Shown: in pieces, positions 10,758 to 26,986 of the stretch
Position numbering within the stretch: position 1 is the first letter of the stretch
Layout: every line of letters starts with the position of its first letter
Assembly: GCA_029934085.1 (NCBI GenBank)
Contig: JAOZMY010000008.1
Coordinates: 2,468-42,028 of the forward strand
Origin: a bacterium
Lineage (GTDB): Bacteria > Desulfobacterota > S145-22
Length of the DNA: 39,561 bases
Direction of reading: 5' to 3'
Position numbers and translations under genes: made by a program
The notes under the pieces: generated by a model
Told to the model about the DNA's origin: nothing
Databases searched by the model: none
Seen by the model: only the letters and a program-made list of their open reading frames with translations

Positions 10758-11168
10758 ATGAAGATACGGTTATCACGCGAAAATGTCAGAGGCGAATTTG
10801 TCAAAAAAGTGGAAATGATTAGTGGTGAGGACCTGCTTAAGTGCTACCAGTGCGGAAAGTGCTCCGCGGGATGCCCCGCGGCCTTCGAGATGGATATCCT
10901 TCCCTCCCACGTCATCCGGCTGGCCCAGATGGGGCAGGAGGAGGAACTCTCCAAGGTCAACAGCTACTGGATCTGCCTCTCCTGCCAAACCTGCACCGTC
11001 CGGTGCCCCCGCGGGGTGGACATCGCCAAGATCATGGAGGCCTTGCGCCTGGTCACCCTGCGTCAGAAGAACCAAAACAAGGTGGAAGCCACCGCCCTGC
11101 CCACGGAACTGCTGGCCGAGCTTCCCCAGATCGCCATTGTCAGCAACCTGCGCAAGATGAGCGGGTAA
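10758..11168 (+). CDS. hdrC: Heterodisulfide reductase subunit C-like 2x[4Fe-4S] protein (HdrC-1)
   Basis: 136 aa with two CxxCxxCxxxCP motifs (CYQCGKCSAGCP, CLSCQTCTVRCP) at HdrC-like spacing. Confidence 0.85.
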   Translation: MKIRLSRENVRGEFVKKVEMISGEDLLKCYQCGKCSAGCPAAFEMDILPSHVIRLAQMGQEEELSKVNSYWICLSCQTCTVRCPRGVDIAKIMEALRLVTLRQKNQNKVEATALPTELLAELPQIAIVSNLRKMSG

Positions 11169-11180
11169 GAGGGGATATTT

Positions 11181-12059
11181 ATGAAAATTCCTTACTATCC
11201 AGGATGCACGTTGAAAACCAAGGCCAAGGACCTGGAGGACTCCGCCATCGCGGCCGCCAAGGTCCTGGACATCGAGATGGAGGAACTCCCGCGCTGGAAC
11301 TGCTGCGGGACCGTTTACTCCCTGGCCTCGGACGACCTCATCCATCAGGTCGGCTCTATCCGGAACCTGGTGCGGGTCAAGGAACAGGGAGCCAACCAGG
11401 TCGTGACCCTCTGCTCCATGTGCTACAACACCCTGAAGCGGGCCAACGAGTTCTTTCTCGCCGACGAGGAGAAACAGGACCGCATCAACCGCTACATGGA
11501 CGAGGAGATCGACTACACGGGAGACGTCGCCGTGGTGCACCTCCTGGAGATCCTGCGGGACGAAGTGGGCATGGAGAAGATTAAGGCGGCCGTCAAGAAA
11601 CCGTTGACGGGCTTGAAGGTCTCTCCCTACTACGGGTGCATGTTGCTGCGGCCCGCCTCCATCGGGATCGACAACACGGAACGGCCCACGGTGATGGAGG
11701 ACCTCCTGCGAGCCCTGGGGGCGGAGGTTATCGACGACCCCTACAAGACCGAGTGCTGCGGTGCCTATCAGACCGTCAACCGCAAGGACGTGGTGGTCAC
11801 CTGCGTCCACAGCATCCTCACCTCGGCCCAGCGAAACGGGGCGGAGGTCATCGCCTTGAGCTGTCCCCTTTGTGACTTCAACCTGGACAACCGGCAGAAG
11901 GACATCCTCCAGACCTACAAAGGGTTCCATCCCATACCGGTCCTCTACTTCACCCAGTTGATGGCCATCGCCTTCGGCCTGGACGAATCGGTCTGCCGAT
12001 TCGAGCTGTCCTACAACGATCCCAGGCCGCTACTCAAATCCAAGGGGCTGATCGAATGA
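11181..12059 (+). CDS. hdrB: Heterodisulfide reductase subunit B-like protein, two CCG domains (HdrB-1)
   Basis: 292 aa with two complete C-Xn-CCG-Xm-CxxC units (YPGC/NCCGT/LCSMC and YYGC/ECCGAY/SCPLC). Confidence 0.88.
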   Translation: MKIPYYPGCTLKTKAKDLEDSAIAAAKVLDIEMEELPRWNCCGTVYSLASDDLIHQVGSIRNLVRVKEQGANQVVTLCSMCYNTLKRANEFFLADEEKQDRINRYMDEEIDYTGDVAVVHLLEILRDEVGMEKIKAAVKKPLTGLKVSPYYGCMLLRPASIGIDNTERPTVMEDLLRALGAEVIDDPYKTECCGAYQTVNRKDVVVTCVHSILTSAQRNGAEVIALSCPLCDFNLDNRQKDILQTYKGFHPIPVLYFTQLMAIAFGLDESVCRFELSYNDPRPLLKSKGLIE

Positions 12060-13399
12060 GCGAGACCTTCGAGAAAAAGGCCCTCATCGTGGGCGGCGGC
12101 GTGGCGGGGATCCAGGCAGCCCTGGACATCGCCGACGGCGGCTACCAGGTCATCCTGGTGGAGCGAACCCCGTCCATCGGCGGCCACATGGTCCAGCTCT
12201 CCGAGGTTTTCCCCACCCTGGACTGTCCCCAGTGTATCCTGACCCCCAAGATGGTCATGTGCGGGCAGCACCCCAACATCGACATCAAGGCCTACTGCGA
12301 GGTGGAATCGGTCACGGGAGAAGTAGGCAACTTCACCGTCAAGATCCGCCACAAGGCTACCTACGTGGACTGGGACGCCTGCACCGGCTGCGGCCAGTGC
12401 GAGCAGAAATGTCCCACCAAGGCCCCCTCCGAGTTTAACCGTGAACTCGCCTTCGGACCCCGGAAGGCCATCTACAGCCCCTTCGCCCAGGCGGTCCCCA
12501 ACAAGCGGGTCATCGATCCGGACCACTGCCTGAAGCTCACCAAGGACAAGTGCGGGATCTGCGCCAAGGTCTGCCCCACCCAGGCCATCCGCTACGACCA
12601 GAAGGACTGGTTTGAAGAAATCAAAGTGGGGGCCATCATCGTGGCCACCGGTTACGAGCTCTACAAGAAGGAGAACCTCACCGAATATGCCACCGATCCG
12701 GACGTCATCGACGGCTTGGAGTTCGAGCGGATCCTCTGTCCCTCCGGGCCCACCGCGGGGGTCATCCGGCGCCCCTCGGACGAGAAAGAGCCGAAGGAGG
12801 TGGTCTTCGTCCAGTGCGCCGGCTCCCGGGACCCCGACAAGCACCTCCCCTACTGTAGCCGGGTCTGCTGCATGTACTGCTGCAAGATGGCCATGCTCTA
12901 CAAGCACGCCGTGCCCGACGGGCAGGCCTACATCTTTTACATCGACGTGCGCACCGACGGGAAGATGTACGAGGAGTTCTACCAGCGGGGGGTGGAGGAG
13001 GATCGGATTGTCTATCTCCGGGGCAAGGTCTCCAAGATCTTCCGTCAGGGCGACAAAATCGTCGTCTTCGGTATGGACACCCTCACGGGAAAACGGGTGG
13101 AGGTGGAAGCGGATCTGGTGGTCCTGGCCATGGCCATGATCCCCAACCCCGCCGGGGAGAAAGTGAAAAAGGTCCTCAACCTGAAAACCGATCAGTTCGG
13201 GTTCATCACCGAGGCCCACGCCAAGCTGCACCCCGTGGAGACGGGCATCGACGGCATCTTCGTGGCGGGAACCGCCCAAGCCCCCAAGGACATTCCTGAG
13301 ACGGTGGCCCAGGCGGGCGGTGCCGCCAGCAAGGTCCTCTCCCTCTTCTCCGGGGTTGAAAAGGGACAAGAAGCCGTGTTGAAGGAGCTGACAGGATGA
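12056..13399 (+). CDS. hdrA: HdrA-type flavoprotein, short form (FAD domain plus inserted ferredoxin domain; no N-terminal or C-terminal domains)
   Basis: 447 aa with GGGVAGIQAALD dinucleotide motif, FPTLDCPQC, inserted Cys motifs CTGCGQCEQKCP and CLKLTKDKCGICAKVCP, and VFVQCAGSRDPDKHLPYCSRVCC. ATGA overlaps at both ends. Confidence 0.85.
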   Translation: MSETFEKKALIVGGGVAGIQAALDIADGGYQVILVERTPSIGGHMVQLSEVFPTLDCPQCILTPKMVMCGQHPNIDIKAYCEVESVTGEVGNFTVKIRHKATYVDWDACTGCGQCEQKCPTKAPSEFNRELAFGPRKAIYSPFAQAVPNKRVIDPDHCLKLTKDKCGICAKVCPTQAIRYDQKDWFEEIKVGAIIVATGYELYKKENLTEYATDPDVIDGLEFERILCPSGPTAGVIRRPSDEKEPKEVVFVQCAGSRDPDKHLPYCSRVCCMYCCKMAMLYKHAVPDGQAYIFYIDVRTDGKMYEEFYQRGVEEDRIVYLRGKVSKIFRQGDKIVVFGMDTLTGKRVEVEADLVVLAMAMIPNPAGEKVKKVLNLKTDQFGFITEAHAKLHPVETGIDGIFVAGTAQAPKDIPETVAQAGGAASKVLSLFSGVEKGQEAVLKELTG

Positions 13400-15366
13400 A
13401 GCCCCGCATCGGTGTGTTCGTCTGCCATTGCGGTCTGAACATTGCGGCGACCGTAGAGGTCAGCGAGGTCGTCAAGGCCATCAAGGACTATCCGGGCGTG
13501 GTCCACGCTCAGGACTACATCTACATGTGCTCCGATCCCGGCCAGGAGCTGGTCCGCAAGGCCATCCGGGAAAAGAATCTGACCGGTCTGGTCATGAGCA
13601 ACTGTTCTCCCTCCCTTCATGAACGGACCTTCCGGAATTTGGCCGCCTCCGAGGGGTTGAACCCCTACCTCGTGGAGGTGGCCAACATCCGGGAATACTG
13701 TAGCTGGCCCCACCAAGGCGATAAGGAGACCGCCACCAAGAAGGCCCTCACCATCATCAAGGCCACCATCGAACGGGTCAAGCGGAACCAGGCCCTCGTT
13801 CCCCTCATCGTGCCCCTCCAGAAGCGGGTCCTCGTCCTGGGCGGCGGCGTGGCGGGGATGCAGACGGCCCTGGATATCGCCGAGGGGGGCTATCCCGTCA
13901 CCATCCTGGAGAAGGAGGCCTACCTGGGCGGGCGGGTGCGCCAGCTGGACCGCACCTTCATTTCCCTGGAATCGGCCCCCGATCTCGTCAACGAGATGAT
14001 CGACCGCACCCTGAAACAGCCGAACATCGAGGTGTTGACCACCGCGCAGATCGAGAATCTCAGCGGCTACGTGGGAAATTTCGAGGTACGGATTCGCCAG
14101 CAGATTCCCTGGGTCGATCCCGACAAGTGCAACGGCTGCGAGGCCTGTATTACCGCCTGTCCGGCGGAGGTGCCCTCGGCCTTCGACCGGGGGTTGGTCA
14201 CGCGGAAGGCTATCGACTGGACGCCAGGGGAACGGTCCGGCGACAAGAGCATCTTCCTCGACCACCAGGTGTGCCGGCGCGTCACCCACCAGGAGAACTG
14301 CACCGCCTGCCAAGAGGCCTGCAAGGAAGGAGCCATCGCTTATCCGGAAGATCGGTTTATCGAACAAACCTACGGGGCCATCGTAGTAGCCACGGGACAC
14401 GACCTCTACCGGAAGTCCGCTTTGACGGAATACGCGGAGGACCCCGATGTCCTGGATGCCCTTCAGTTCGAGCGGATGCTGGCAGAGGACGGACCCACGG
14501 GCGGCAAGGTGATGCGTCCCTCCGACGGCAAGGTCCCCAAGGAGGTGGTCTTCGTCCAGTGCGCCGGGTCCCGGGACCCTGACAAGCATTTCCCCTACTG
14601 TTCCAAGGTCTGCTGCATGTACACCTGTAAGGAGGCCCGCCGTTACAAAGAGAAGGTTCCCGACGGCCAGGCCTATCTTTTCTACATCGACATCCGTTCC
14701 ACGGGGAAGGGCTACGAGGAGTTCGTCAAGGAGAGCGTGGAGAAAGAGCGTCTCCTCTACCTCAAAGGAAAGGTCTCCAAGATCGCCCGGCAGGGGGATA
14801 AACTCCTTGTTCTGGGGGGCGACACCATCACGGGGGTGCAGGTGGAGATCGAGGCCGATCTGGTAGTCTTGGCTATGGCCACGGTTCCTAATCCGGGGGC
14901 CAAGGAACTGGCCCGGCTCCTGAACATCAATACCGATCCCTACGGGTTCATTCAGGAAGCCCACCCCAAGCTGGCGCCGGTGGAGACCCTGACGGCGGGG
15001 ATCTATCTCGCCGGGACCTCCCAGGCCCCTAAGGATATCCCCCACACCATCTACCAGGCGGGCGGGGCCGCGTCAAAGATTCTCTCCCTCTTCTCCAGGA
15101 AGGAGCTGGTTCACGAGCCCCTCGTGGCGCGCGTGGACACGGAGATCTGCGCGGGCTGCGGCTACTGCCGCGACAACTGCGCCTTCCAAGCGGTGGATGT
15201 GGATCCCATTCGGAAGAAGGCGGTCGTTAACGAGGCCCTCTGCGAGGGGTGTGGCGCCTGCGCAACGGCCTGTCCCTCGGGGGCCATTCAGGTTAAGAAT
15301 TTGGATTCCAAGCAGGTTTTTGATATGATTTCCATCGTAACACAAGACTACTCATTGCAGCCGTAA
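13396..15366 (+). CDS. hdrA: HdrA-type flavoprotein, full-length architecture
   Basis: 656 aa. HdrA N-terminal domain (IGVFVCHCGLNIA), GGGVAGMQTALD, inserted ferredoxin (CNGCEACITACP), VFVQCAGSRDPDKHFPYCSKVCC, and C-terminal 2x[4Fe-4S] ferredoxin (CAGCGYCRDNC, CEGCGACATACP). Lacks the TLDCxxC motif (has SLESAPD). Confidence 0.9.
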   Translation: MKPRIGVFVCHCGLNIAATVEVSEVVKAIKDYPGVVHAQDYIYMCSDPGQELVRKAIREKNLTGLVMSNCSPSLHERTFRNLAASEGLNPYLVEVANIREYCSWPHQGDKETATKKALTIIKATIERVKRNQALVPLIVPLQKRVLVLGGGVAGMQTALDIAEGGYPVTILEKEAYLGGRVRQLDRTFISLESAPDLVNEMIDRTLKQPNIEVLTTAQIENLSGYVGNFEVRIRQQIPWVDPDKCNGCEACITACPAEVPSAFDRGLVTRKAIDWTPGERSGDKSIFLDHQVCRRVTHQENCTACQEACKEGAIAYPEDRFIEQTYGAIVVATGHDLYRKSALTEYAEDPDVLDALQFERMLAEDGPTGGKVMRPSDGKVPKEVVFVQCAGSRDPDKHFPYCSKVCCMYTCKEARRYKEKVPDGQAYLFYIDIRSTGKGYEEFVKESVEKERLLYLKGKVSKIARQGDKLLVLGGDTITGVQVEIEADLVVLAMATVPNPGAKELARLLNINTDPYGFIQEAHPKLAPVETLTAGIYLAGTSQAPKDIPHTIYQAGGAASKILSLFSRKELVHEPLVARVDTEICAGCGYCRDNCAFQAVDVDPIRKKAVVNEALCEGCGACATACPSGAIQVKNLDSKQVFDMISIVTQDYSLQP

Positions 15367-15376
15367 GGAGAAGGGA

Positions 15377-18300
15377 ATGGCAAACAATCGGGTTTTGGTG
15401 GTCGGAAGCGGCGTCAGTGGTTGGGCGGCTGCGCTGAATCTTGCCTCGTCCGGTGTCCAGGTTTCCCTCATCGAGCAGGCCCCGTTCTTAGGGGGAACCC
15501 TCACGCAGGTGGAACGCCAGTTTCCCACGAACCGCTGCCTCATGTGCACCCTGCTGCCTGTAACGGAGCGGGTGGAGGCCGCGGAATTCTGCCTCCGCAG
15601 GGACTTCTACCATCCTTTCATCGACGTGCATCTCCTCACCGCCCTCAAGAAAGTGGAGGGGGAGGCGGGGAACTTCACTGTCCAGCTGGAGACGAAACCG
15701 CGCTACGTCGTCGAGGAGGCCTGCATCGCCTGCGGCAAGTGTGAGGCGGTCTGCCCGGAGGAGGTACCCGACCCCTTCAACGGCAACCTCTCCAACCGCA
15801 AGGCCATCTACGCTCGGTCGCCCCAGGGGATCCCCCATGTTTACGTCATCGACGAGGCCGTCTGCACGAAGTGCGGCAAGTGCGTGGAGGCCTGTCCCAC
15901 GAATGCCATCGACCTCAAGCAAGAGACAAAGTCCTGGGATCTGAACGTGGCCGCCGTCGTCGTGGCCGCCGGCTTCGATCTTTTCGATCCTAACAACCTC
16001 CTCCAGTACGGCTGGGGCCGGTATCCTGACGTCCTAACCAGCCTCCAGTTGGAACGACTCCTCAGCGAGACGGGCCCCACCCAGGGGAACTGGGTGCGGC
16101 AGGCCACGGGCGAGCCGGTCAAGAAGGTCGCCTTCATCCAATGCGTCGGGTCCCGGGATGTGGACCACCCCTACTGTTCCTCCGCCTGCTGCATGATCGC
16201 TCTGAAGGAGGCCATGTTCGTCAAGGAGAAAAACCCCGAGATCGAAACGACCCTCTACTACATGGACCTGCGAGATTTCGGCAAGGGATATTACCGCTAC
16301 CGGGAACAGGCGGCGGCCATGGGTGTGAAATTCGTGGCCTCGCGGGTCCCGGATGTGAAATACAACCCCGCCACAAAGCAGTTGCTCATCCGTCATATCG
16401 GGGACAACGACGCTGTGACGGAGGAGGCAGTGGACCAGGTGATTCTCGCTGTGGGCCAGACCCCGTCGGACAAAAGCGGCACCCTGGCCGGGATGCTGGA
16501 TCTGGAGAAAGACGAGGGCGGCTATCTGGTGGCCACCGACCTGAATACCACGGCCACCCGGCGGGACGGCATCTACATCTGCGGCTCCGTCCGGGAGCCA
16601 AAGGATATCCCTGACGCCATCTGCGAAGGGGATGCCGCGGCGGCCCAGGCGATCCGCTGGGTGGAAGGTCCTCGCCTGGAAGAAGAAAAGGAAGCCCATC
16701 CCGAGGTGGAGTTGGAACCACCCAAGGTCGGTATTTTCTTGTGCCGATGTGGGGACGAGATCGCCGCGCGACTCGACCTGCCGAGCCTCGCGGAGGAACT
16801 ACGGAAACGGGGGAACGTGGCCTTCGTGCAGGAGGTGGACTACCTCTGCCTGAAGGAAACCACCGATTCCCTCGTCAAACAGATCAAGGACTCCAAGGTC
16901 AACCGAGTGGTCTTCGCCGCCTGCGTGCCCTACCGTTTCGAGCAACAGTTCCGGTCCATCCTGAAAGAGGCGGGGCTGCCGGAGAATTTCATGACCATCA
17001 CGAGCATCCGAGAGCAGGTGGCCTGGGTGCATGAGGCAGATTCTGAATCGGCCCGCCGGAAGGCGGCGGCGATGGTGGCGGCCGCCATCGACCGCGTCGC
17101 GGGGGAAATCCCCCGTACGCAGGCTACGCAGCCGGTCACCGGAAAGGTCCTTGTCATCGGCGGCGGCGTGGCAGGACTGACCGCCAGCCAGTTCCTCGCC
17201 GAACAGGGCGTGCCGGTGGATCTGGTGGAGATCGAGGAGAACCTGGGAGGGAACTTCAAGACGACCCATTTCCTCCTGGGAGGGAGCGATCCCCAGGCCT
17301 TCCTCGGGGATCTTATTGAGAAGGTCCAGACGAACGAGAACATCCGTGTCCTTACAAAGACCCGGGTGACAGCGAAGGAAGGGAGCCTGGGCCGATTCGT
17401 GATAACCCTCGAAACCCCGGAGGAAACGTTCAAAGAGGTCTATGGAGGCGTCATCCTCGCCACGGGGGCCAAAGAACACGAGGTTACCGAGTATGCCTAT
17501 GGCCAGCACCCCGCCGTCGTGACCATGCGGGAATTCGGGGAGAAGCTCTCGGATCCCTCCATGCCCGCGCCGAAGGACCTTGTCTTCATCCAGTGCGTCG
17601 GCTCCCGGGAGGGGGATCACCCCTACTGCAGCCGCTACTGCTGCTCCAAGGCCCTGGCCCACGCCTTGGAGGTCAAGCAGCGCTGGCCGGAATGTCAGGT
17701 TTCCGTCCTCTATCGGGACATCATGACCTACGGGAATAGGGAACGGGCCTACACGGAGGCGCGGGAGATGGGAATCCACTTCTTCCGTTACGGCGTGGAC
17801 GACAAACCCGCCGTGGAGGTAGGTGGAGACGTGGTGACCGTCCGGTTTACCGATCCCGTCCTGGGCGGAAAGGTGACCGTCTCGCCCGACTTTCTCGTGT
17901 TGAGCAACGGGGCCGAGGCGGATGATCGGGAGGGCATGGCCGATCTTTTCGGATTAGAGACCACGGAGGACGGTTTCTTCAAGGAGGCGGAGGTGAAATT
18001 CCGCCCGGTGGACGCCCCGGAGGCAGGAATTTGGCTCTGTGGGCTTGCCCTCGGCCCGAAGAATGTGAACGAGGTGATTATTCAAGCCGAGGCCGCTGCG
18101 GCGCGGGCCCTCACCGTCCTGAGGAAACAGGCATTGCGGCTCCCCCACGTGAAGGCGTGGGTCAGCCCACGGCGGTGTTCCGCCTGTGAGATGTGCGTGG
18201 ACGCCTGCCCCTACCATGCCCGGATCAAGGACGAAGACCTGGGCTATGTGGTGGTGCGGGAGGCCCTCTGCCAGGGCTGCGGCGTCTGCACGACCGTCTG

Positions 18301-18379
18301 CCCCAACAACGCCGTCAAACTGATTTCGTATCAGGAGAACCAGATTTTCTCCATGATCGATCGTATGGCATTAGGGTAA
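15377..18379 (+). CDS. hdrA: Double HdrA-type flavoprotein (short-form-like N-module fused to a full-form-like C-module)
   Basis: 1000 aa. The N-module has VVGSGVSGWAAALN, FPTNRCLMC, CIACGKCEAVCP, CTKCGKCVEACP and AFIQCVGSRDVDHPYCSSACC. The C-module (from about nt 16720) has VGIFLCRCGDEIA, VIGGGVAGLTASQF, VFIQCVGSREGDHPYCSRYCC and terminal CSACEMCVDACP / CQGCGVCTTVCP. Confidence 0.85.
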   Translation: MANNRVLVVGSGVSGWAAALNLASSGVQVSLIEQAPFLGGTLTQVERQFPTNRCLMCTLLPVTERVEAAEFCLRRDFYHPFIDVHLLTALKKVEGEAGNFTVQLETKPRYVVEEACIACGKCEAVCPEEVPDPFNGNLSNRKAIYARSPQGIPHVYVIDEAVCTKCGKCVEACPTNAIDLKQETKSWDLNVAAVVVAAGFDLFDPNNLLQYGWGRYPDVLTSLQLERLLSETGPTQGNWVRQATGEPVKKVAFIQCVGSRDVDHPYCSSACCMIALKEAMFVKEKNPEIETTLYYMDLRDFGKGYYRYREQAAAMGVKFVASRVPDVKYNPATKQLLIRHIGDNDAVTEEAVDQVILAVGQTPSDKSGTLAGMLDLEKDEGGYLVATDLNTTATRRDGIYICGSVREPKDIPDAICEGDAAAAQAIRWVEGPRLEEEKEAHPEVELEPPKVGIFLCRCGDEIAARLDLPSLAEELRKRGNVAFVQEVDYLCLKETTDSLVKQIKDSKVNRVVFAACVPYRFEQQFRSILKEAGLPENFMTITSIREQVAWVHEADSESARRKAAAMVAAAIDRVAGEIPRTQATQPVTGKVLVIGGGVAGLTASQFLAEQGVPVDLVEIEENLGGNFKTTHFLLGGSDPQAFLGDLIEKVQTNENIRVLTKTRVTAKEGSLGRFVITLETPEETFKEVYGGVILATGAKEHEVTEYAYGQHPAVVTMREFGEKLSDPSMPAPKDLVFIQCVGSREGDHPYCSRYCCSKALAHALEVKQRWPECQVSVLYRDIMTYGNRERAYTEAREMGIHFFRYGVDDKPAVEVGGDVVTVRFTDPVLGGKVTVSPDFLVLSNGAEADDREGMADLFGLETTEDGFFKEAEVKFRPVDAPEAGIWLCGLALGPKNVNEVIIQAEAAAARALTVLRKQALRLPHVKAWVSPRRCSACEMCVDACPYHARIKDEDLGYVVVREALCQGCGVCTTVCPNNAVKLISYQENQIFSMIDRMALG

Positions 18380-18393
18380 AGGAGAAAACAGAG

Positions 18394-18816
18394 ATGGAAG
18401 AATTCGAACCCAAGATCATCGGCTTTTTCTGCAACTGGTGCACCGCCACTGCGGCCGACTTGGCGGGGACGACCCGGCTCCAGTATCCCCCCAACCTCCG
18501 GCCCATCCGGGTCATGTGCACGGGAACGGTGGACCCGGTCTACATCCTCCGTTCGCTCCTTCTGGGGGCCGACGCCGTTTTCGTGGGCGGGTGACACCCG
18601 GGCGAATGCCACTATGTGAGTGGCAACCTCAAGGCCCGGCGGCGTGTGGCCATTCTGAAGACCATCTTCGACACCCTGGGACTGGAGAGCGAACGGGTCC
18701 ACCTGGAGTGGATCAGCGCCAGTGAGGGCAAGAAGTTTGCGGACACGGTCAAGAAGATTACAGAAGAGACCAAACAGCAAGGGCCCAACCCCTTAGCCAA
18801 GCACTGGTCCATCTAA
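18394..18816 (+). CDS. mvhD: MvhD/FlxD-family protein (methyl-viologen-reducing hydrogenase delta subunit-like), selenocysteine-containing; TGA at 18592-18594 read as Sec
   Basis: Two tracked ORF pieces (ending at 18594 and starting at 18616) are in the same frame. Joined, they give MEEFEPKIIGFFCNWC...GADAVFVGG-U-HPGECHYVSGNLKARRR...LEWISASEGKKF. This matches the MvhD pattern with Sec where the family has Cys (GC-H-x-G-x-C-H-Y). AGGAGA Shine-Dalgarno lies upstream of ATG 18394, and a hairpin follows the TGA. Confidence 0.85.
18598..18639 (+). promoter_or_regulatory. Candidate bacterial SECIS element
   Basis: Apical hairpin GCCACU-AUGUG-AGUGGC (18608-18624; 6-bp stem, GU-containing loop) starts 14 nt after the UGA. 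It is extended by an outer stem CCGGGC (18598-18603) / GCCCGG (18634-18639). Pairing checked by hand only. Confidence 0.55.
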
Positions 18817-18828
18817 CGGGAGACACCT

Positions 18829-19950
18829 ATGGCCAATAAATGGATAAAACACCCACTGGAAAACCGGGACGCCCTCATTAAGGGGTGGCTGAAGACCCTT
18901 TTGGAGAAGGAGATTGTGAAGGGGGTTGTCGTCCCCTCCCTACTTCCCTCGGGGGCGAACGCCGCCCAGAGCCTTATCACCGATCCGGCCATGCTGGAGA
19001 ACACGGATCCTTTCGCTCCGGTCATGGCGGTCAGCACAGCGAAGATCATTTCAAAAATGACCCGGCTCAAACCGATGGAGAAACCGGTGGCTGTCCTGCT
19101 CCGTCCATGCGAGCTGCGCGCCACCATCGAGCTGACGAAGCTGAAGCAGGCCAATTTGGACAACTTGCTCCTCATCGCCATGGATTGTGCAGGGACTTTT
19201 AGCGTGAAAACCTACACCTCCCTCGTCCAGGAGGGGGCGAATTTCGTAGAGATCGAGAGGAAGCTCTTCGCCGGAGAGGAGGACCCCCTCCTGCGGCCCG
19301 TCTGCCAAGGATGTGAATGGTCCGTCCCGGACAACTGTGACATCACCATCGCCTGGCACGGATTGGACGAGAGCAGTTTCGGCCTCATCGCCCACACAGA
19401 GAAGGGCGAGGCCTCCCTGGCGGAGATGGAAGGCGAGGCCTGGGAAAACGGGGAAGAGGCGCGCGCCGCCGCCGTGGAGAAATGGACGAACGACAAGATC
19501 GCCAAGCGGGACGCCCAGTTCGCCGAACTGAAGGAGCGGGTATCCGGCGTGGAAAACCTCCTGAAGACCTACGCCGCGTGCATCAACTGCCACAACTGCA
19601 TGACGGTCTGTCCCATCTGCTTCTGCAAGGAGTGTTTCTTCGACTCCGCCGTCTTCGAATTCGAGTCTGACCGGTTCATGGATTGGTCCAGCGCCCGTGG
19701 GAACCTGAGACTTCCCACCGACACGCTCCTCTTCCATATCGGCCGGATGAACCACATGTCCACCTCGTGCGTGGCCTGCGGCATGTGTCAGGACGCCTGT
19801 CCCAACGACATCCCCGTGGCCCAGATCTTCAAGATGGTGGGCTTTAACACACAGCAGCGCTTCGACTACGTTGCGGGGCGCAGCCTGGACGAACCCGTCC
19901 CCCTGGCCGACTTCCGGGAGGACGAACTCCATGAGATCGGAGGCGAATAG
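18829..19950 (+). CDS. Fe-S electron-transfer protein, FlxB/FlxC- or sulfhydrogenase-beta/AsrA-like
   Basis: 373 aa. C-terminal half has CINCHNCMTVCPICFCKEC followed ~60 aa later by CVACGMCQDACP. As I recall, this CxxCxxCxxxCPxCxC arrangement is seen in AsrA, Pyrococcus hydrogenase beta subunits and FlxB/C. The N-terminal half (LRPCELRATIEL...AMDCAGT) is FrhB/FdhB-like. Position directly after mvhD matches the flxD-flxC order. Confidence 0.6.
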   Translation: MANKWIKHPLENRDALIKGWLKTLLEKEIVKGVVVPSLLPSGANAAQSLITDPAMLENTDPFAPVMAVSTAKIISKMTRLKPMEKPVAVLLRPCELRATIELTKLKQANLDNLLLIAMDCAGTFSVKTYTSLVQEGANFVEIERKLFAGEEDPLLRPVCQGCEWSVPDNCDITIAWHGLDESSFGLIAHTEKGEASLAEMEGEAWENGEEARAAAVEKWTNDKIAKRDAQFAELKERVSGVENLLKTYAACINCHNCMTVCPICFCKECFFDSAVFEFESDRFMDWSSARGNLRLPTDTLLFHIGRMNHMSTSCVACGMCQDACPNDIPVAQIFKMVGFNTQQRFDYVAGRSLDEPVPLADFREDELHEIGGE

Positions 19951-19953
19951 ACC

Positions 19954-20532
19954 GTGGACTATCAACTAACGAACCAACCGGTCCGACAGGATCCCTCCTT
20001 CGCCAATGAGATCATCGAGGCAACAGGGGTCCGGGTGGATCGTTGCTACCAGTGCATGACCTGCACGCTGGGATGCCCCGTGGCGGATGCCATGGATTTC
20101 CCGCCCAACCAGGTCATGCGGCTCATCGACCTGGGAGCGGAGGAGATTCTTCTCTCCTCGCGCACCATCTGGATGTGCGTGACCTGCGAGACCTGCTTTG
20201 CGCGGTGCCCCAACCAGATCGATACGGCCGCCGTGATGGACTATCTGAGGGAGAAGGCTACGGCCAAGGGAATCGCGGTGCCCGAGGAGCGGATTCAGCT
20301 CCTCCATCAGGTTTTCGCGGAGAACATCAAGTCGTTCGGGAAGGTACATGAGGCCACCATGCTCATGGCCTACAAACTGAAGAGCAAGGACTTCTTCTCG
20401 GACATGGGCATCGGCCTGAAGCTCTTTCTGAAAGGGAAGATCCCTCTCTTCCCGTCCAAGGTCAAGGGGCTGGATGAGGTCAAGCGGATCTTCGAGAAGA
20501 CCTACGACCAAACCTTCGGAGGGAAGTCGTGA
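19954..20532 (+). CDS. hdrC: HdrC-like 2x[4Fe-4S] protein (HdrC-2)
   Basis: 192 aa with a GTG start 10 nt after GGAGG. Carries CYQCMTCTLGCP and CVTCETCFARCP. Longer C-terminal tail than HdrC-1. Confidence 0.8.
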   Translation: MDYQLTNQPVRQDPSFANEIIEATGVRVDRCYQCMTCTLGCPVADAMDFPPNQVMRLIDLGAEEILLSSRTIWMCVTCETCFARCPNQIDTAAVMDYLREKATAKGIAVPEERIQLLHQVFAENIKSFGKVHEATMLMAYKLKSKDFFSDMGIGLKLFLKGKIPLFPSKVKGLDEVKRIFEKTYDQTFGGKS

Positions 20533-21389
20533 AATTCTCCTACTACCCGGGGTGCACCGTTCACTCCACGGCCATCGAATACGCCCGGTCCATCGACGCC
20601 GTGGTCGCCGCGCTGGGGGTCGAACTTGCGGAGATCGAGGACTGGAACTGCTGCGGTGCCGCCGCGGCCCACAGCATTCATCGGAAGCTGGGGCTGGCCC
20701 TTCCCGCCCGAAACATCTCCCAGGCGCAGAAACAGACCCATCTCTCCCCCGACCTGGTTACCTCCTGCCCCGGTTGCTTCAATGCCCTGAAACGGGCGGA
20801 CTACGCCCTGCGCAATGACGAAGAGACCCGGAAGGAGATCGAGGAAACCGTGGGGTTTGCCTACAACGGGGAGGTTCGCATCCGCTCCCTGATGGAGGTT
20901 CTGACCCACGAACTCGGCGAGGAGGTTCTGAGCGCCAAGGTCAAACGGCCCTTGGACAGGCTGAAACTGGTCTGTTACTACGGTTGCGCCCTCGTGCGGC
21001 CCCATGCCGTCACGGGGCTCGAGAACCCGGAAAATCCCATGATGATGGATAATCTGATGAAATGGATGGGGGCGGACGTGCGTGACTGGTCCTACAAGAC
21101 CGAGTGTTGCGGGGCCGACCTGGCCCTCACCCACGGGGACATGGTCCAGAAGATCGTGGGACGCCTGATAGACCACGCCCGGGAGGCGGGCGCGGAGGCC
21201 GTCGTCACTTCTTGCGGGCTCTGCCAGGCCAACCTGGACATGCGCCAGACGGGGACAGATCCCCTGCCCGTCTTCTACTTCACCGAACTGATGGGGGTCG
21301 CCATGGATCTACCCAATCGCAAGGGTTGGTGGTCCAAGCATATCGTGAACCCGGGCCCGCTGCTCGCGCGGCTGGGATACGAATCATAA
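20529..21389 (+). CDS. hdrB: HdrB-like protein with two CCG domains (HdrB-2; SdhE/TfrB-like position)
   Basis: 286 aa with a GTGA overlap start. Two complete CCG units (YPGC/NCCGA/SCPGC and YYGC/ECCGAD/SCGLC). Confidence 0.85.
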   Translation: MKFSYYPGCTVHSTAIEYARSIDAVVAALGVELAEIEDWNCCGAAAAHSIHRKLGLALPARNISQAQKQTHLSPDLVTSCPGCFNALKRADYALRNDEETRKEIEETVGFAYNGEVRIRSLMEVLTHELGEEVLSAKVKRPLDRLKLVCYYGCALVRPHAVTGLENPENPMMMDNLMKWMGADVRDWSYKTECCGADLALTHGDMVQKIVGRLIDHAREAGAEAVVTSCGLCQANLDMRQTGTDPLPVFYFTELMGVAMDLPNRKGWWSKHIVNPGPLLARLGYES

Positions 21390-21436
21390 CAACGGCTTTT
21401 CATGAGAGGAAGACATAAATTGGGAGGAACAAGGTT

Positions 21437-22213
21437 ATGACAACCACCGTTGCCAAAGACGCCATGCGCAAAGGAGACAAGACGGTCATCGCCGAAGGAA
21501 CGCGGATGATTCCCATCTACGTGATGGGGAAACGCTACTTCGTTCCGGAGACTCTGACCATTCAGAAGGCAATGGAATACGCCGGCTACCAATTCATTCG
21601 ATCCTGCGGGTGCCGCGGGGGGATCTGTGGGGCCTGCGCCACCGTCTACCGGCTGGAAGGAGACTACAAGCTCTATTCCGGGCTTGCCTGCCAGACTGTG
21701 GTGCAACCCAACATGTATCTCGTTCAGATTCCCTTCTTTCCCGCCAACAAGGTTGCTTACGACATCGAGAAGCTTCCCTACGACGTCACGGCCATTCAGA
21801 CCACTTACCCTGAGACCTTCCGCTGCGTTCAGTGCAATGCTTGCACCAAGGTCTGTCCCATGGACCTACAGGTCATGGACTACATGGCGGCGGCCATCCG
21901 GGGAGACATCGAGGCGGTGGCGGAGATGTCCCGGAGCTGCATCATGTGCGGGCTCTGCACCTCGCGCTGTCCTGCCGAGACCAACCAGTACAACATGGCA
22001 GAGCTCTGTCGCCGGTTGTATGGCCGCTACGGGCAGAAGAAGTCCCAGCAGGTGGCCAAGCGGGTGGAGGAGATCAAGGCGGGGAAATACGATCCCATGA
22101 TCGAAGAACTCCAATCTCTCCCCTTGGAAGAGCTCAAAAAACGTTATGAAGAGAGGGAATGGGAGCCCGTCATGAGCGAGGGATGGGAACCGAAAGAAAC
22201 AAAATATCTCTAA
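21437..22213 (+). CDS. sdhB: Succinate dehydrogenase/fumarate reductase iron-sulfur subunit-like protein
   Basis: 258 aa. N-terminal 2Fe-2S pattern GCRGGICGAC...LAC (compare SdhB CREGICGSC). Then CVQCNACTKVCP and CIMCGLCTSRCP: both distal motifs are full 4-Cys, with no 3Fe-type CxxxxxC motif. GGGAGG Shine-Dalgarno. Confidence 0.82.
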   Translation: MTTTVAKDAMRKGDKTVIAEGTRMIPIYVMGKRYFVPETLTIQKAMEYAGYQFIRSCGCRGGICGACATVYRLEGDYKLYSGLACQTVVQPNMYLVQIPFFPANKVAYDIEKLPYDVTAIQTTYPETFRCVQCNACTKVCPMDLQVMDYMAAAIRGDIEAVAEMSRSCIMCGLCTSRCPAETNQYNMAELCRRLYGRYGQKKSQQVAKRVEEIKAGKYDPMIEELQSLPLEELKKRYEEREWEPVMSEGWEPKETKYL

Positions 22214-22240
22214 TAGATTGAAATACCTGGAGGATACAGC

Positions 22241-23917
22241 ATGGCTTACACCCCGGAAATGAAAGAACTAATCAAGCGGGTCGAGGCAACCCGTCCAGAA
22301 AGGGTCGAGCGGGTCAAGCAAGGGATCCAGTTCCCGAAACTCTCCCTGGAAGAGTCACAGCGGCGCCTGAAGACCTATCATCCCGACTACAAGGAAGAGG
22401 GGCGCCGGGAGTTCAAGATCGGGCCCAACAAGGGGGACGGCCACTCCTACCCGGACGAGGTGGTGGATCTCTTCGAGGCCAAGAGCCGAATCGATCCCGA
22501 GATCGTGGACCTCTCGAAACCCGACTATGAAACGGATGTCCTGATCATTGGCGGCGGTGGCGCGGGGACCACGGCCTCCCTCTTTGCCCAGGAAAACGGG
22601 ATGAAGGTCATCATCGCCACGAAACTCCGCCACGGGGATGCCAACACCATCATGGCGGAGGGCGGGATTCAGTCGGCCGACTCCACCAAGGATTCTCCCT
22701 ACTACCACTACCTGGACATCATCGGCGGAGGGCATTTTACCAACAAGCCTGAGCTGGTGAAGGTGCTGACTCTTGATGCCCCGCTCATCATCCAGTGGCT
22801 GGAGAGCCTGGGCATGAACTTCGACAAAACCCCGGACGGTGAAATGCGGCTGCTGGCTGGCGGCGGCACCTGCCGGAAACGAATGCATTCCTGCGGGGAC
22901 GTCACGGGTGCGGAGATCATGAGAACCATCCGAGATGAGGCCCGCAACCGCCGCGATGACATCACGGTGCTGGAATACCAGCCCGCGGTGGAGATCATCC
23001 TGGACGAGGACGGCAAGGCCGCCGGGGCACTCCTCTACAACATGGAAACGGAGGAGTATACCATCGTTAAGGCCAAGGCCGTCATCATCACCACCGGGGG
23101 ATGCGGGCGGCTCCACATCCAGGGGTTCGCCACCACCAACCACTACGGGGCCACCATGGACGGTATCGTCATGGCCTACCGCTGCGGTGTTCCGCACTGC
23201 TTTCTTTACGCCACCCAGTACCACCCCACCGGGGCGGCCTATCCGGAGCAGAACGTTGGACTCCTCATCACGGAAAAGATGCGCACCGCCGGGGCCCAGC
23301 CCGTCAATATTGATGGGGAGGAATTCACCTTCCCCCTGGAGCCCCGCGACGTGGAATCCGCCAACATCATCCGGGAGTGCATGGACGTGGGTAAGGGGAT
23401 CCCCACCCCCGTGGGCCGGATCGGCGTTTGGCTCGATACACCCATGATCGACATGCTGCGTGGCGAGGGCACAGTGGAACACGACTTCCCCGCCAAATAC
23501 ATCCAGTTCAAACGCTACGGGATTGACATCAGCAAGGAACCACTGCTCGTCTATCCAACACTGCACTATCAGAACGGCGGCGTGGAAGCCAATGAGTGGG
23601 GCGAGACCAAGATCCCCGGACTCTTCGTTGCCGGGGAGGTCCTGGGTGGCATCCACGGGGAGAACCGACTGATGGGCAACTCACTGCTCGACATCAACGT
23701 ATACGGCCGCCGGGCCGGGATCCGGGCCGCGGAATACGTGAAAGAGGGGATCACCCTGAAGAAGCTTACCCTTGAGCACGTCCGGGCATATCACAAGGAA
23801 CTGAAAGAAGCCGGAATCGAGACGGACCGGATCTCCCCCATGCTCCTGCCCGACTACTCCAACCCCGAGGTCCGGGCGAAGCAGCTTACCGCACGGTATT
23901 TCGGGACGCTACGGTAA
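22241..23917 (+). CDS. sdhA: Succinate dehydrogenase/fumarate reductase flavoprotein subunit-like protein
   Basis: 558 aa with DVLIIGGGGAGTTASL, TIMAEGGIQSA, YHPTG and FVAGEVLGGIHGENRLMGNSLLDINVYGRRAG. About 98 aa precede the FAD motif. Asn sits where FrdA/SdhA carry the FAD-linking His. Confidence 0.85.
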   Translation: MAYTPEMKELIKRVEATRPERVERVKQGIQFPKLSLEESQRRLKTYHPDYKEEGRREFKIGPNKGDGHSYPDEVVDLFEAKSRIDPEIVDLSKPDYETDVLIIGGGGAGTTASLFAQENGMKVIIATKLRHGDANTIMAEGGIQSADSTKDSPYYHYLDIIGGGHFTNKPELVKVLTLDAPLIIQWLESLGMNFDKTPDGEMRLLAGGGTCRKRMHSCGDVTGAEIMRTIRDEARNRRDDITVLEYQPAVEIILDEDGKAAGALLYNMETEEYTIVKAKAVIITTGGCGRLHIQGFATTNHYGATMDGIVMAYRCGVPHCFLYATQYHPTGAAYPEQNVGLLITEKMRTAGAQPVNIDGEEFTFPLEPRDVESANIIRECMDVGKGIPTPVGRIGVWLDTPMIDMLRGEGTVEHDFPAKYIQFKRYGIDISKEPLLVYPTLHYQNGGVEANEWGETKIPGLFVAGEVLGGIHGENRLMGNSLLDINVYGRRAGIRAAEYVKEGITLKKLTLEHVRAYHKELKEAGIETDRISPMLLPDYSNPEVRAKQLTARYFGTLR

Positions 23918-23936: not shown

Positions 23937-24824
23937 ATGAATCCACTCGAGCTTAAGGGTGTGTTGCCACCCGTGGCCACACCATTCACGGATGATGAAC
24001 TCGATACCGAGGCGCTGAAACGCAACCTCGAGAAATACAACAAAACGGGACTCTCCGGATACCTGATTCTGGGTTCCAACGGCGAGGGCGTCTATCTCAA
24101 TGAAGGTGAGAAACGTGCCGTCCTCGGAGCGGCCAGACAGGCAATCCCGCAGGACAGGATCTTCATGGCCGGGATGGGACAGGAATCCACCCGTGAGACG
24201 ATCCGATGGGTGAATATATCGGCAGAGATAGGGGCCGATTGCGCCCTGATCGTGACCCCGAATTTCTATAAGGGCCTGATGACCTTCGAAGCACTGAGAC
24301 GTCACTACCTCGCCGTGGCGGAGACTGCCAAGATTCCGATCCTCATCTACAATGTCCCTCAGTTCACCGGGGTCAATCTAACACCAGACCTTATCGAGGC
24401 CTTATCCTCTCACCCCAATATCGTAGGCATCAAGGACAGCTCCGGGAACATCGGTCAGCTCGCTGAGATTATTCGCAGGACACCAAACGATTTTGCCGTT
24501 TTCGTGGGATCCGCTCCCGTTTTCTACCCTGCCCTCTGTATCGGCGCCGTAGGAGGCATCCTGGCGGTGGCCAATGTCATCCCGGAGGTTTGTGTGGCCC
24601 TGAAGGAAAGATTCGACGCCGGCAACCACGGGGAGGCAAAAAACCTCCAGTTCAAGATCACGCCCTTAGCCCGATGGGTCACCGCGGAACACGGAATCGG
24701 CGGGCTTAAGATGGCGATGGATGAAGTGGGTTACGAAGGCGGTCTTCCCCGATCCCCCCTGTTTCCCCCGGACGAAAGCCATCGGTCAGAACTCAAGGCG
24801 CTCCTCGAACCCTTCCGGTCTTAG
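23937..24824 (+). CDS. DapA-family class I (pyruvate-dependent) aldolase, HOGA-like subgroup
   Basis: 295 aa with GSNGEG (DapA has GTTGES), YNVPQFTG and the Schiff-base Lys block NIVGIKDSSGN. The pattern resembles 4-hydroxy-2-oxoglutarate aldolase as I recall it. Last gene of the plus-strand train. Confidence 0.8.
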   Translation: MNPLELKGVLPPVATPFTDDELDTEALKRNLEKYNKTGLSGYLILGSNGEGVYLNEGEKRAVLGAARQAIPQDRIFMAGMGQESTRETIRWVNISAEIGADCALIVTPNFYKGLMTFEALRRHYLAVAETAKIPILIYNVPQFTGVNLTPDLIEALSSHPNIVGIKDSSGNIGQLAEIIRRTPNDFAVFVGSAPVFYPALCIGAVGGILAVANVIPEVCVALKERFDAGNHGEAKNLQFKITPLARWVTAEHGIGGLKMAMDEVGYEGGLPRSPLFPPDESHRSELKALLEPFRS

Positions 24825-26949: not shown

Positions 26950-26957
26950 GTTTTTCA

Positions 26958-26986
26958 TTGACTTGACTGGCCAACTTTGTTATGAG
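26958..26986 (+). promoter_or_regulatory. Candidate sigma70-type promoter for the por-nuoEF operon
   Basis: TTGACT (26958-26963; a second overlapping TTGACT at 26963-26968), 17-nt spacer, TATGAG (26981-26986), 34 nt upstream of ATG 27020. Confidence 0.35.

Follow-up and report, generated by a model that had tools for sequence, protein, structure and literature searches.

An Hdr-, MvhD- and SdhBA-like gene cluster encoding a candidate cytoplasmic, electron-bifurcating fumarate reductase

Introduction

Fumarate/succinate is the most positive common organic redox couple in anaerobes, and several gene clusters have been taken to link its reduction to Hdr proteins. An Hdr-linked fumarate reductase was proposed in 2019–2020 for Pseudoclostridium thermosuccinogenes (2019 preprint, cited in PMC7282089), and expression of the operon that combines fumarase, FlxABCD-HdrABC and fumarate reductase in this organism changes together, about 4-fold (PMC7282089). 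In tubeworm symbionts and Thioflavicoccus, flxABCD-hdrABC genes are interspersed with tfrAB and korABCD (Rubin-Blum et al, 2019; PMC6315080), and the tubeworm-symbiont cluster is co-expressed, tfrAB excepted (Mitchell et al, 2024; PMC11636981). The proposal that NADH reduces fumarate plus ferredoxin has been restated (PMC13147460), and clusters combining Mvh-Hdr, thiol:fumarate reductase (Tfr), 2-oxoglutarate:ferredoxin oxidoreductase (OGOR) and fumarase were described in Cloacimonadota (Williams et al, 2021; PMC8542988). Here, we analyze a 39,561-nucleotide stretch of contig JAOZMY010000008.1 (assembly GCA_029934085.1, forward-strand positions 2,468 to 42,028; hereafter the window) from an uncultured bacterium of the Desulfobacterota (S145-22). 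At window positions 10758–23917, it carries eleven genes for Hdr-, MvhD- and SdhBA-like proteins, which together may form a soluble, electron-bifurcating fumarate reductase.

Described enzymes resemble parts of this cluster. FrdABEF of S. fumaroxidans (Sfum_4092–4095), a CCG-type enzyme that lacks a membrane anchor, is found in greater amounts with fumarate (PMC3570798, PMC5947623), and P. thermopropionicum has NADH:fumarate oxidoreductase activity in its soluble fraction, with an SDH2 locus that adjoins an FrhB-like gene (PMC10308238). In the Fdh-Hdr and Elp-Hdr complexes of methanogens, FdhB/ElpB oxidize reduced coenzyme F420 (F420H2) at a flavin adenine dinucleotide (FAD) and feed HdrA via MvhD/ElpC (PMC12350162). 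The class II benzoyl-CoA reductase contains BamE, a fused double HdrA in which only one FAD bifurcates, a selenocysteine-containing MvhD-like subunit (BamF) and an HdrBC-like output wire to a non-thiol acceptor (BamD), and its modules are hierarchically coupled (10.64898/2026.04.10.717634).

The concept of an Hdr-coupled fumarate reductase has accordingly been put forward before and is unproven; its form in the window is unusually elaborate and provides an isolate-free, sequence-complete example. Its architecture, with an ElpB-like arm but no Flx or Mvh, four HdrA flavin modules, two HdrBC pairs and a selenocysteine-containing MvhD, seems to be undescribed. A first-pass annotation of the window had remarked that no biochemically characterized complex of this composition was known; none was found in the literature searched, but the concept itself is already published as a genomic hypothesis for Flx-Hdr and Mvh-Hdr clusters.

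Gene content of the cluster

An uninterrupted train of + strand genes extends over window positions 4696–24824 (ORF list). Its core consists of eleven co-directional open reading frames (ORFs) at 10758–23917, separated by gaps of −4 to +47 nt, which agrees with the first-pass annotation in both ORFs and spacing. The fumarase beta gene ends 65 nt ahead of the first of them, and since no gap within the cluster exceeds 65 nt, there is no room for additional genes. Families were assigned by Pfam and NCBIfam profile searches of the window ORFs. The source is uncultured, and the same protein is present on contigs from four metagenome assemblies. The genes of the train are as follows.

10758..11168, +, HdrC-like 1 (HdrC1); two [4Fe-4S] motifs
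11181..12059, +, HdrB-like 1 (HdrB1); PF02754 twice, two complete CCG motifs
12056..13399, +, HdrA1, 447 aa; HdrA model positions 138–563, CCMYxxK lysine
13396..15366, +, HdrA2, full-length HdrA, 656 aa; alignment to 5ODC_A residues 3–649
15377..18379, +, HdrA3, fused pseudo-dimer, 1000 aa; HdrA1-like half (3–437) and HdrA2-like half (449–994)
18394..18816, +, MvhD/FlpD [2Fe-2S] adaptor, likely with selenocysteine (UGA at 18592–18594); FlpD profile
18829..19950, +, FdhB/ElpB/FrhB-like Fe-S protein, 373 aa, probable flavoprotein and candidate electron-input arm; phmmer, Foldseek
19954..20532, +, HdrC-like 2 (HdrC2); two CxxCxxCxxxC motifs
20529..21389, +, HdrB-like 2 (HdrB2); two complete CCG motifs
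21437..22213, +, SdhB/TfrB-N-like Fe-S subunit; [2Fe-2S] and two [4Fe-4S] motifs, no [3Fe-4S] motif
22241..23917, +, SdhA/FrdA/TfrA-like flavoprotein, predicted catalytic fumarate reductase subunit; FAD_binding_2, FAD probably non-covalent
4696..7215, +, malic enzyme, two complete units fused in tandem, 839 aa; Pfam malic and Malic_M, twice each
7398..8342, +, malate/lactate dehydrogenase family 1; Ldh_1_N, Ldh_1_C
8339..9286, +, malate/lactate dehydrogenase family 2; paralogue, 46% identical to the family 1 copy
9283..10122, +, class I fumarase alpha part; PF05681, E 5.6e-118
10132..10692, +, class I fumarase beta part; PF05683, E 1.4e-60
23937..24824, +, DapA-like gene (dihydrodipicolinate synthase, DHDPS, family); co-directional, 19-nt gap after the SdhA-like gene

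Profiles and motifs agree with the earlier calls of two HdrC, two HdrB, three HdrA-type proteins with four FAD modules and an SdhB/SdhA-like pair, and Pfam likewise recovers the malic enzyme, the two malate dehydrogenases and the class I fumarase upstream (malic, Malic_M, Ldh, Fumerase, Fumerase_C). One label had to be changed, namely that of the protein encoded at 18829–19950, which had been called FlxB/C-like and is an FdhB/ElpB homologue (see below). As had been noted by eye, the cluster encodes no membrane anchor: the maximal 19-residue Kyte–Doolittle mean is ≤1.57 in all eleven proteins, indicating no membrane helix, and hydropathy reveals no hydrophobic small subunit (SdhF-like) among them. 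No obvious terminator-like site was found on the + strand in the intergenic gaps. The promoter and terminator scan was otherwise at chance level, and this applies to a promoter-like site at 4612–4639, ahead of the malic enzyme gene. An Rfam scan of the whole window returned no family and no SECIS (selenocysteine insertion sequence) model.

Two known systems with a similar inventory were considered and rejected. The gene order recalls the sHdr system of sulfur oxidizers (hdrC1B1A-hyp-C2B2), but LbpA, DsrE and TusA domains are absent from the window ORFs scanned by Pfam, as the first-pass annotation had stated for their genes. A type E succinate:quinone oxidoreductase (SdhABEF/MFR) is not indicated either, as the MFR_anch_SdhE score (164 versus 500 bits) is no better than that for HdrB and a hydrophobic small subunit is missing.

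Conservation of the gene neighborhood

The flavoprotein family is found in at least 599 species-representative genomes, with 55–70% identity that includes an N-terminal extension. It spans Thermodesulfobacteriota, Syntrophobacterales, Dehalococcoidia, Anaerolineae, Aminicenantes, Fermentibacteria, Cloacimonadota, Neomarinimicrobiota, Spirochaetota, Bacillota, Gemmatimonadota, Nitrospirales and one metagenome-assembled genome (MAG) of Theionarchaea. The best 120 matches are all MAG or metagenome sequences, and relatives usually carry no annotation beyond "FAD-binding protein" or "SdhA/NadB". To compare gene contexts, window proteins were mapped onto 80 loci with 10-kb flanks and all neighboring ORFs were clustered; 48 of these loci, with ≥9 kb of upstream sequence, were informative for the Hdr context.

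Of the 73 loci with the flavoprotein gene, 65 also encode an SdhB-like homologue, at a median of ~0.8 kb upstream of the flavoprotein gene. Synteny in relatives, on which the first-pass annotation had made its reading depend, is evident: Hdr genes stand beside SdhBA in 45 of the 48 informative loci, across many phyla. The contexts are distributed as follows.

16 of 48 loci: HdrABC-FlxD with FlxC/B and FlxA (FAD_binding_6, NAD_binding_1 and Fe-S)
13 of 48 loci: HdrC-HdrB only (split Tfr-like four-gene unit)
7 of 48 loci: FdhB-like protein with HdrA1, HdrA2 and HdrA3
6 of 48 loci: HdrABC with or without MvhD, alone
3 of 48 loci: HdrABC-MvhD with NiFe hydrogenase small and large subunits (MvhAG)
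3 of 48 loci: no Hdr genes

Relatives with the window-type architecture (L004, L009, L010, L013, L025, L030 and L052) stem from Deltaproteobacteria-type and Dehalococcoidia MAGs. In most large clusters of the 80 loci there is a single HdrBC pair, and one locus (L016) reads HdrC-HdrB-HdrA-HdrA-SdhB-SdhA, without MvhD or a donor module. The fetched flanks contain fumarase genes in 9 loci, malic enzyme in 5, subunits of 2-oxoacid:ferredoxin oxidoreductases in 20 and succinyl-CoA synthetase in 10; recurrent neighbors include a fumarate supplier and a consumer of reduced ferredoxin.

Conservation across phyla places the gene arrangement far beyond chance. The context types are interspersed with one another on a neighbor-joining flavoprotein tree, which indicates that the Hdr partnership is stable while the accompanying modules are exchanged. 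This exchange parallels that of the Mvh, Fdh or Elp arms in methanogenic Hdr complexes and, by analogy, provides what we regard as the strongest argument that fumarate may take the place of the heterodisulfide.

Catalytic flavoprotein and iron–sulfur subunit

The SdhA-like protein contains a full FAD_binding_2 domain (E 1.2e-63) and has a short C-terminus that lacks the Succ_DH_flav_C domain. Its top NCBIfam family is TfrA (306 bits, cut-off 718), followed by Sdh/Frd (262 bits) and NadB models (about 254–256 bits); the equivalog level of nadB is not reached (254 versus 453 bits). Across the family, residues H328 (HPT), T344/E345/R348 (T-E-x-x-R), R369 (EPRDVES), H442 (HYQNGG) and R476 (NRLMGNSL) do not vary, and in alignments they coincide with the residues for substrate binding and proton transfer in SdhA and NadB structures. 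The family alignment further places an invariant asparagine (N135) where SdhA and FrdA have the histidine that binds FAD covalently, and the FAD is probably bound non-covalently. Flavinylation mutants of FrdA and SdhA have established that covalent FAD is required for succinate oxidation and dispensable for fumarate reduction; N135 at the flavinylation site, together with the residue pattern, therefore favors a fumarate reductase.

Foldseek searches with the predicted model of the SdhA-like protein return only the SdhA, FrdA and NadB fold and leave its N-terminal extension unexplained. This extension of ~95 aa (residues 1–95, window 22241–22525) is conserved throughout the family, has many invariant residues and forms helices at residues 5–26 and 36–46 in the predicted model. 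It may serve as a docking element for Hdr or Fe-S partners.

Sequence similarity is weak for the SdhB-like subunit (Fer2, E 5.6e-5; TfrB, 30 bits), which carries a C-x4-C-x2-C...C motif plus two full CxxCxxCxxxCP motifs. The second full four-cysteine motif implies a [4Fe-4S] cluster at the place where SdhB has a [3Fe-4S] cluster, and the same replacement characterizes Tfr and type E enzymes. The TfrB model is tiled by three window proteins, the SdhB-like protein (19–183), HdrC2 (131–234) and HdrB2 (263–465), with matches of 30–44 bits (cut-off 385) that are divided over three genes.

HdrA, HdrB and HdrC modules

HdrA1, HdrA2 and HdrA3 together comprise four GxGxxG FAD modules. HdrA2 has the layout of a full-length HdrA, with an N-terminal domain, a TrxR-type FAD domain, inserted and C-terminal ferredoxin domains and the lysine described below, and it aligns over its full length with M. 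wolfeii HdrA (5ODC, residues 3–649, E 1.8e-166, 558 bits). In this alignment, K412 of HdrA2 corresponds to Lys409 of 5ODC. HdrA1, HdrA2 and the N half of HdrA3 all carry an equivalent lysine, within the motif CCMYxxK, whereas the C half of HdrA3 has alanine at this position. The same three lysine-bearing modules also retain the inserted ferredoxin domain, which is kept in the N half of HdrA3 and absent from its C half. In BamE, a lysine contacting the flavin N5 is the hallmark of the bifurcating FAD (10.64898/2026.04.10.717634).

HdrC1 and HdrC2 have two CxxCxxCxxxC motifs each, and in the minimal four-gene clusters it is the HdrC1 type that lies immediately upstream of SdhB. HdrB1 and HdrB2 each have two complete CCG motifs, with all ten CCG cysteines kept; HdrB1 stays under the cut-offs of both the HdrB (168 bits) and the SdhE/MFR model (164 bits). 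Both HdrBC pairs are complete, and so is MvhD if its UGA is read as selenocysteine. Judged by these domain layouts, the cluster is predicted to encode a split and a fused HdrA "dimer", with an HdrBC pair close to either of them.

MvhD adaptor and candidate donor arm

The mvhD gene contains an in-frame TGA at 18592–18594, corresponding to residue 67 in GG-U-HPGECHY. The FlpD profile runs across this codon (positions 1–59 before, 61–121 after), and the codon aligns with cysteine in 22 homologues and with TGA in one more (locus L013, 7560 region). Selenocysteine is therefore likely at this position, as had been suggested; a hairpin 3′ of the TGA is statistically not strong (z −1.6). With TGA in one of the 23 MvhD homologues of related loci, selenocysteine use appears sporadic and lineage-specific.

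The gene that directly follows mvhD, in the position of the Flx genes in Flx-type loci, encodes the FdhB/ElpB-like protein. It matches 8rvu_E (phmmer E 1.5e-27) and 9t1s_M (2.7e-32). Its AlphaFold model (mean predicted local distance difference test score, pLDDT, 79; the N-terminal 240 residues, comprising the FrhB-like domain, mostly >85) superimposes on 7bkb_E and 8rvu_E with Foldseek template-modeling scores of 0.65–0.66, followed by FrhB, F420-dependent sulfite reductase and HCAR. Identity to the post-MvhD protein of Flx-type loci is ~20–24%, and a cluster member from a "Deltaproteobacteria bacterium" MAG is 83% identical to the window protein. Its kinship with FdhB/ElpB most probably shifts the electron entry point from an Flx module to this subunit. 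FdhA/ElpA-like (molybdopterin-family) partners are absent from the window ORFs scanned, and Pfam and NCBIfam searches of 10758–23917 found no FAD_binding_6/NAD_binding_1 protein, no Fer4_22-type FlxB/C and no NiFe hydrogenase.

Comparison with described systems

The published loci of P. thermosuccinogenes, the tubeworm symbionts, S. fumaroxidans and P. thermopropionicum were compared with the window by their description rather than by sequence. Closest is the Flx-Hdr "succinate operon" class, with which the window shares a soluble SdhAB/TfrAB-like pair, hdrABC, mvhD/flxD, fumarase and, in that class, often OGOR, as well as the proposed reaction, in which a donor reduces fumarate plus ferredoxin (PMC7282089, PMC6315080, PMC11636981, PMC13147460). 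The window differs in lacking the FlxA NAD(P)H module and FlxB/C, in place of which it has the FdhB/ElpB-like protein, and in having four HdrA flavin modules rather than one, two HdrBC pairs and a selenocysteine-containing MvhD. Clusters of Cloacimonadota (Ca. Celaenobacter) similarly combine Hdr/MvhD with TfrAB-like proteins and fumarase, and also include succinyl-CoA synthetase and OGOR (PMC8542988). The donor module there is the H2-oxidizing MvhAG, whereas the window cluster has no hydrogenase; Celaenobacter-like layouts with NiFe hydrogenase subunits occur in five of our loci (L067, L074, L077, L007 and L014).

With the methanogenic Elp-Hdr and Fdh-Hdr complexes (8RVU, 7BKB), the window has in common HdrABC, the MvhD/ElpC adaptor and the FdhB/ElpB flavo-Fe-S subunit. 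In those complexes, the acceptor is the heterodisulfide of coenzymes M and B (CoM-S-S-CoB) at HdrB, whereas the window adds SdhBA, with fumarate as the presumed acceptor; it lacks the ElpA/FdhA partner, and its host is a bacterium in which F420 use is uncertain. TfrAB of Methanothermobacter is likewise soluble and without a [3Fe-4S] motif, and it provides the best family for the flavoprotein and a TfrB model that three window proteins cover jointly. Here, the window splits the TfrB functions over three genes, its flavoprotein has the ~95-aa N-terminal extension and a short C-terminus, and in the window bacterium CoM-SH and CoB-SH are not expected as donor thiols.

Like BamE of the class II benzoyl-CoA reductase Bam[(BC)2DEFGHI]2, HdrA3 is composed of two halves, and its lysine is confined to the N half. 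In that complex, the low-potential branch leads to the tungsten enzyme and the high-potential branch to the electron-transferring flavoprotein, while the high-potential branch of the window complex would lead to fumarate; the selenocysteine is residue 19 in BamF and residue 67 in the window MvhD. Type E succinate:quinone oxidoreductases, FrdABEF and SDH2 have an anchor-less SdhAB with a CCG-domain partner in common with the window. The FrdABEF and SDH2 loci, as described, lack HdrA and MvhD, and type E enzymes are membrane-associated and quinone-reactive.

Proposed mechanism and alternative explanations

We favor, at a little better than even, a cytoplasmic and electron-bifurcating fumarate reductase, in which an SdhA/SdhB-like core would be fed from HdrA via HdrC/HdrB and which would be co-expressed with fumarate-making enzymes. 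A hydride donor (F420H2 or NAD(P)H) would be oxidized at the flavin of the FdhB/ElpB-like protein, and electrons would pass through the [4Fe-4S] clusters of this subunit and the [2Fe-2S] cluster of the selenocysteine-containing MvhD to a bifurcating HdrA FAD. One electron would then descend via HdrC, HdrB, SdhB and the SdhA FAD to fumarate (about +30 mV), which would assume the role of CoM-S-S-CoB, and the inserted ferredoxin domain of HdrA would pass the other, uphill, to ferredoxin or flavodoxin. Fumarate could be supplied by malic enzyme or malate dehydrogenase and then fumarase, all encoded in the same operon. By our calculation, a 1:1 bifurcation would be exergonic by ~30–50 kJ per fumarate (NADH/F420H2 at −320 to −360, fumarate at +30 and ferredoxin at about −450 to −500 mV).

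The gene content, cofactor motifs, catalytic residues, missing anchor and conserved synteny with exchangeable modules are observed directly and support the Hdr-coupled reading. Published expression and activity data on similarly organized loci (PMC7282089, PMC5947623, PMC10308238) are in line with it. From them we infer bifurcation, the direction of electron flow, the donor, complex formation and the roles of the second HdrBC pair and the extra HdrA modules. Of the soluble bifurcating fumarate reductase envisaged by the first-pass annotation, the composition, the lack of an anchor and the link to fumarate metabolism stand, whereas the FlxB/C input does not.

Several points count against the bifurcating fumarate reductase. 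The cluster contains no FlxA, NuoF or GltD-type NAD(P)H module, no hydrogenase and no FdhA, and the candidate donor is deduced solely from the homology of one subunit to F420-dependent proteins. The scores of all Hdr subunits fall well short of the NCBIfam equivalog cut-offs (HdrA2, 662 of 1100 bits; HdrB, 168 and 153 of 345; HdrC, 65 and 69 of 160), the SdhA-like model is only moderately confident (pLDDT 68), and the bifurcation marker depends on Lys409 of 5ODC being the flavin N5 contact. HdrBC and SdhBA occur without other Hdr proteins in 13 of the 48 informative loci, so the core evidently works without HdrA and bifurcation would be an add-on rather than intrinsic to the family. The gene order (MvhD, FdhB-like, HdrC2, HdrB2, SdhB, SdhA) could also fit an SdhBA that sits on the MvhD arm rather than on HdrB; FdhB is on the donor arm in methanogens (PMC12350162). 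Genuine thiol/disulfide chemistry would also be consistent with two HdrBC pairs whose CCG clusters are intact. Finally, neither purification of, nor fumarate-dependent ferredoxin reduction by, any Hdr–fumarate reductase complex was found in the literature searched, the coverage of which is incomplete.

The same features can be read in other ways. The Hdr, MvhD and FdhB-like proteins might act purely as an input wire of a non-bifurcating soluble oxidoreductase that reduces fumarate with reduced ferredoxin, F420H2 or NAD(P)H and with no coupled ferredoxin reduction, similar to the soluble five-subunit NADH–fumarate reductase of Hydrogenobacter thermophilus that Miura et al reportedly described in 2008. 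This would be in line with locus L016, which has two HdrA but no MvhD or donor module, with the lack of the lysine in the C half of HdrA3, and with the existence of non-bifurcating HdrA-like proteins such as the second FAD of BamE and sHdr (as cited in PMC10052474). We nevertheless consider it unlikely, given that three HdrA modules keep both the lysine and the inserted ferredoxin domain, that HdrABC, MvhD and a donor arm recur with three different accompanying modules, and that genes for ferredoxin-consuming 2-oxoacid:ferredoxin oxidoreductases are frequently adjacent; an uncoupled loss of ~350 mV would, moreover, be wasteful for energy-limited anaerobes. Alternatively, HdrC, HdrB, SdhB and SdhA could constitute a split thiol:fumarate reductase, equivalent to TfrAB, in which fumarate oxidizes a dithiol carrier, and a separate, possibly bifurcating HdrABC-MvhD-type disulfide reductase would re-reduce this carrier. 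The joint coverage of TfrB by the SdhB-like protein, HdrC2 and HdrB2, the TfrA assignment of the flavoprotein, the ten CCG cysteines in both HdrB copies, the presence of two HdrBC pairs and the 13 of 48 loci in which HdrC-HdrB-SdhB-SdhA stands alone all point in this direction, and relatives have been annotated as TfrAB with mention of a DsrC-like carrier (PMC6315080, PMC11636981). A carrier is what such a shuttle fails to find: DsrC, TusE and LbpA genes are absent from the window ORFs scanned by Pfam, no small carrier-like family stands out among the recurrent neighbor families of the 80 loci, of which some were annotated, and CoM and CoB are not expected in bacteria. Most large clusters, in addition, have one HdrBC pair, and the HdrBC-like BamD is a pure electron conduit, so intact CCG clusters need not mean thiol chemistry (10.64898/2026.04.10.717634). 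On balance, the thiol shuttle is an unlikely explanation.

Operation in reverse, with succinate oxidized (for example in syntrophic propionate or acetate oxidation) and reduced ferredoxin co-invested by confurcation to reach a lower-potential acceptor, is very unlikely in our judgment. MAGs of Syntrophobacterales, Syntrophaceae and Syntrophorhabdus commonly encode the family, and the oxidation of succinate is the step that limits propionate syntrophy energetically (PMC5947623, PMC10308238); yet syntrophs use membrane-bound SdhABC for this step, and their soluble enzymes act as fumarate reductases or are unexpressed in syntrophy (PMC5947623, PMC10308238, PMC10579272). The invariant asparagine at the covalent-FAD position also opposes efficient succinate oxidation, and confurcation to NAD+ would require about +40 kJ/mol under standard conditions by our calculation. 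Least probable of all, and barely credible, is that the flavoprotein acts on another substrate, be it L-aspartate as in NadB or another alpha,beta-unsaturated acid, and that the fumarase neighborhood is coincidental. NadB models do score nearly as high as Sdh/Frd (about 254–256 versus 262 bits, with 306 bits for TfrA), and a DapA-like gene and an Asp/Glu racemase gene follow in the window. NadB, however, has no Fe-S partner, whereas an SdhB-like gene is present in 65 of 73 flavoprotein loci, and the position of the NadB-specific glutamate, E121 in E. coli NadB, is Gly/Ala in "LLAGGGT". None of the 80 loci contains a homologue of the DapA-like gene. Fumarase, malic enzyme, SucCD and Kor genes recur across phyla. 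Aspartate oxidase, which the first-pass annotation had itself raised as a competing identity, was consequently rejected on its sub-cut-off nadB score and the SdhB-like partner.

Within the bifurcating fumarate reductase, the duplicated Hdr modules invite a more speculative arrangement. HdrC1-HdrB1-HdrA1-HdrA2 on the one hand, and HdrA3 with the selenocysteine-containing MvhD, the FdhB-like protein and HdrC2-HdrB2 on the other, could form two Hdr units with three lysine-bearing FADs between them, which would harvest the ~350 mV drop from donor to fumarate in a two-stage bifurcation cascade. We regard this as improbable. If true, more than one low-potential electron would be gained per electron passed to fumarate, up to 3:1 if ferredoxin is near −400 mV, and the complex would be a hierarchical HdrA-type bifurcation assembly exceeding the class II benzoyl-CoA reductase.

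If the bifurcating fumarate reductase is real, succinate fermentation, the reductive branch of the tricarboxylic acid (TCA) cycle and carbon fixation through the reductive TCA cycle could conserve energy, or gain the ferredoxin for 2-oxoglutarate synthase, without a membrane or quinones. Since the family is very widespread, biochemical proof would re-annotate a large block of anaerobic metabolism.

Neighboring genes and further observations

Downstream of the SdhA-like gene, the DapA-like gene is probably on the same transcript, but it lies outside the conserved module; a search of the 80 related loci, which did not extend to the racemase, returned no homologue of it. It scores 190 bits, slightly below the 206-bit dapA cut-off, and its end is overlapped by 4 nt by the convergent Asp/Glu racemase gene (window 23937–25546).

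Further downstream, window 26735–33812 (+) encodes a four-gene pyruvate:ferredoxin oxidoreductase (PorG, PorD, PorA and PorB) with a 4-nt overlap to a NuoE-like gene, followed by genes for a NuoF-like protein with additional 2Fe-2S and 2x[4Fe-4S] domains, a HoxU/NuoG-N-like protein and a flavodoxin. The set resembles a HydBC/BamGHI-type NADH/ferredoxin module without a hydrogenase or formate dehydrogenase catalytic subunit and may represent an NADH-linked pyruvate:ferredoxin oxidoreductase or an electron-confurcating module. The NuoE/NuoF/HoxU trio, which lies 6 kb downstream of the cluster, was also considered as its NADH input and rejected, as it is translationally coupled to the por genes, a convergent gene lies in between, and such genes are near the fumarate reductase in only one of the 80 related loci (L015).

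Four Flx-type loci (L032, L034, L036 and L039) contain a second, more canonical cluster ~7–10 kb downstream of the SdhA-like gene. It encodes an SdhA paralogue (~30% identical), a 325-aa Fer2_3 plus 4Fe-4S dicluster protein with HdrC-like similarity and an HdrB-like protein (~33%), so that two different CCG-linked Sdh/Frd-type enzymes are encoded side by side in these loci.

At the upstream end of the train, the two halves of the tandem malic enzyme (418 and 421 aa) are 51% identical to each other, and the malic enzymes that adjoin SdhA in other phyla match the second unit of the window ORF only. The two Ldh/Mdh-family paralogues that follow lie back to back with a 4-nt overlap (7398–9286) and may differ in cofactor or substrate specificity (NADH versus NADPH, malate versus lactate).

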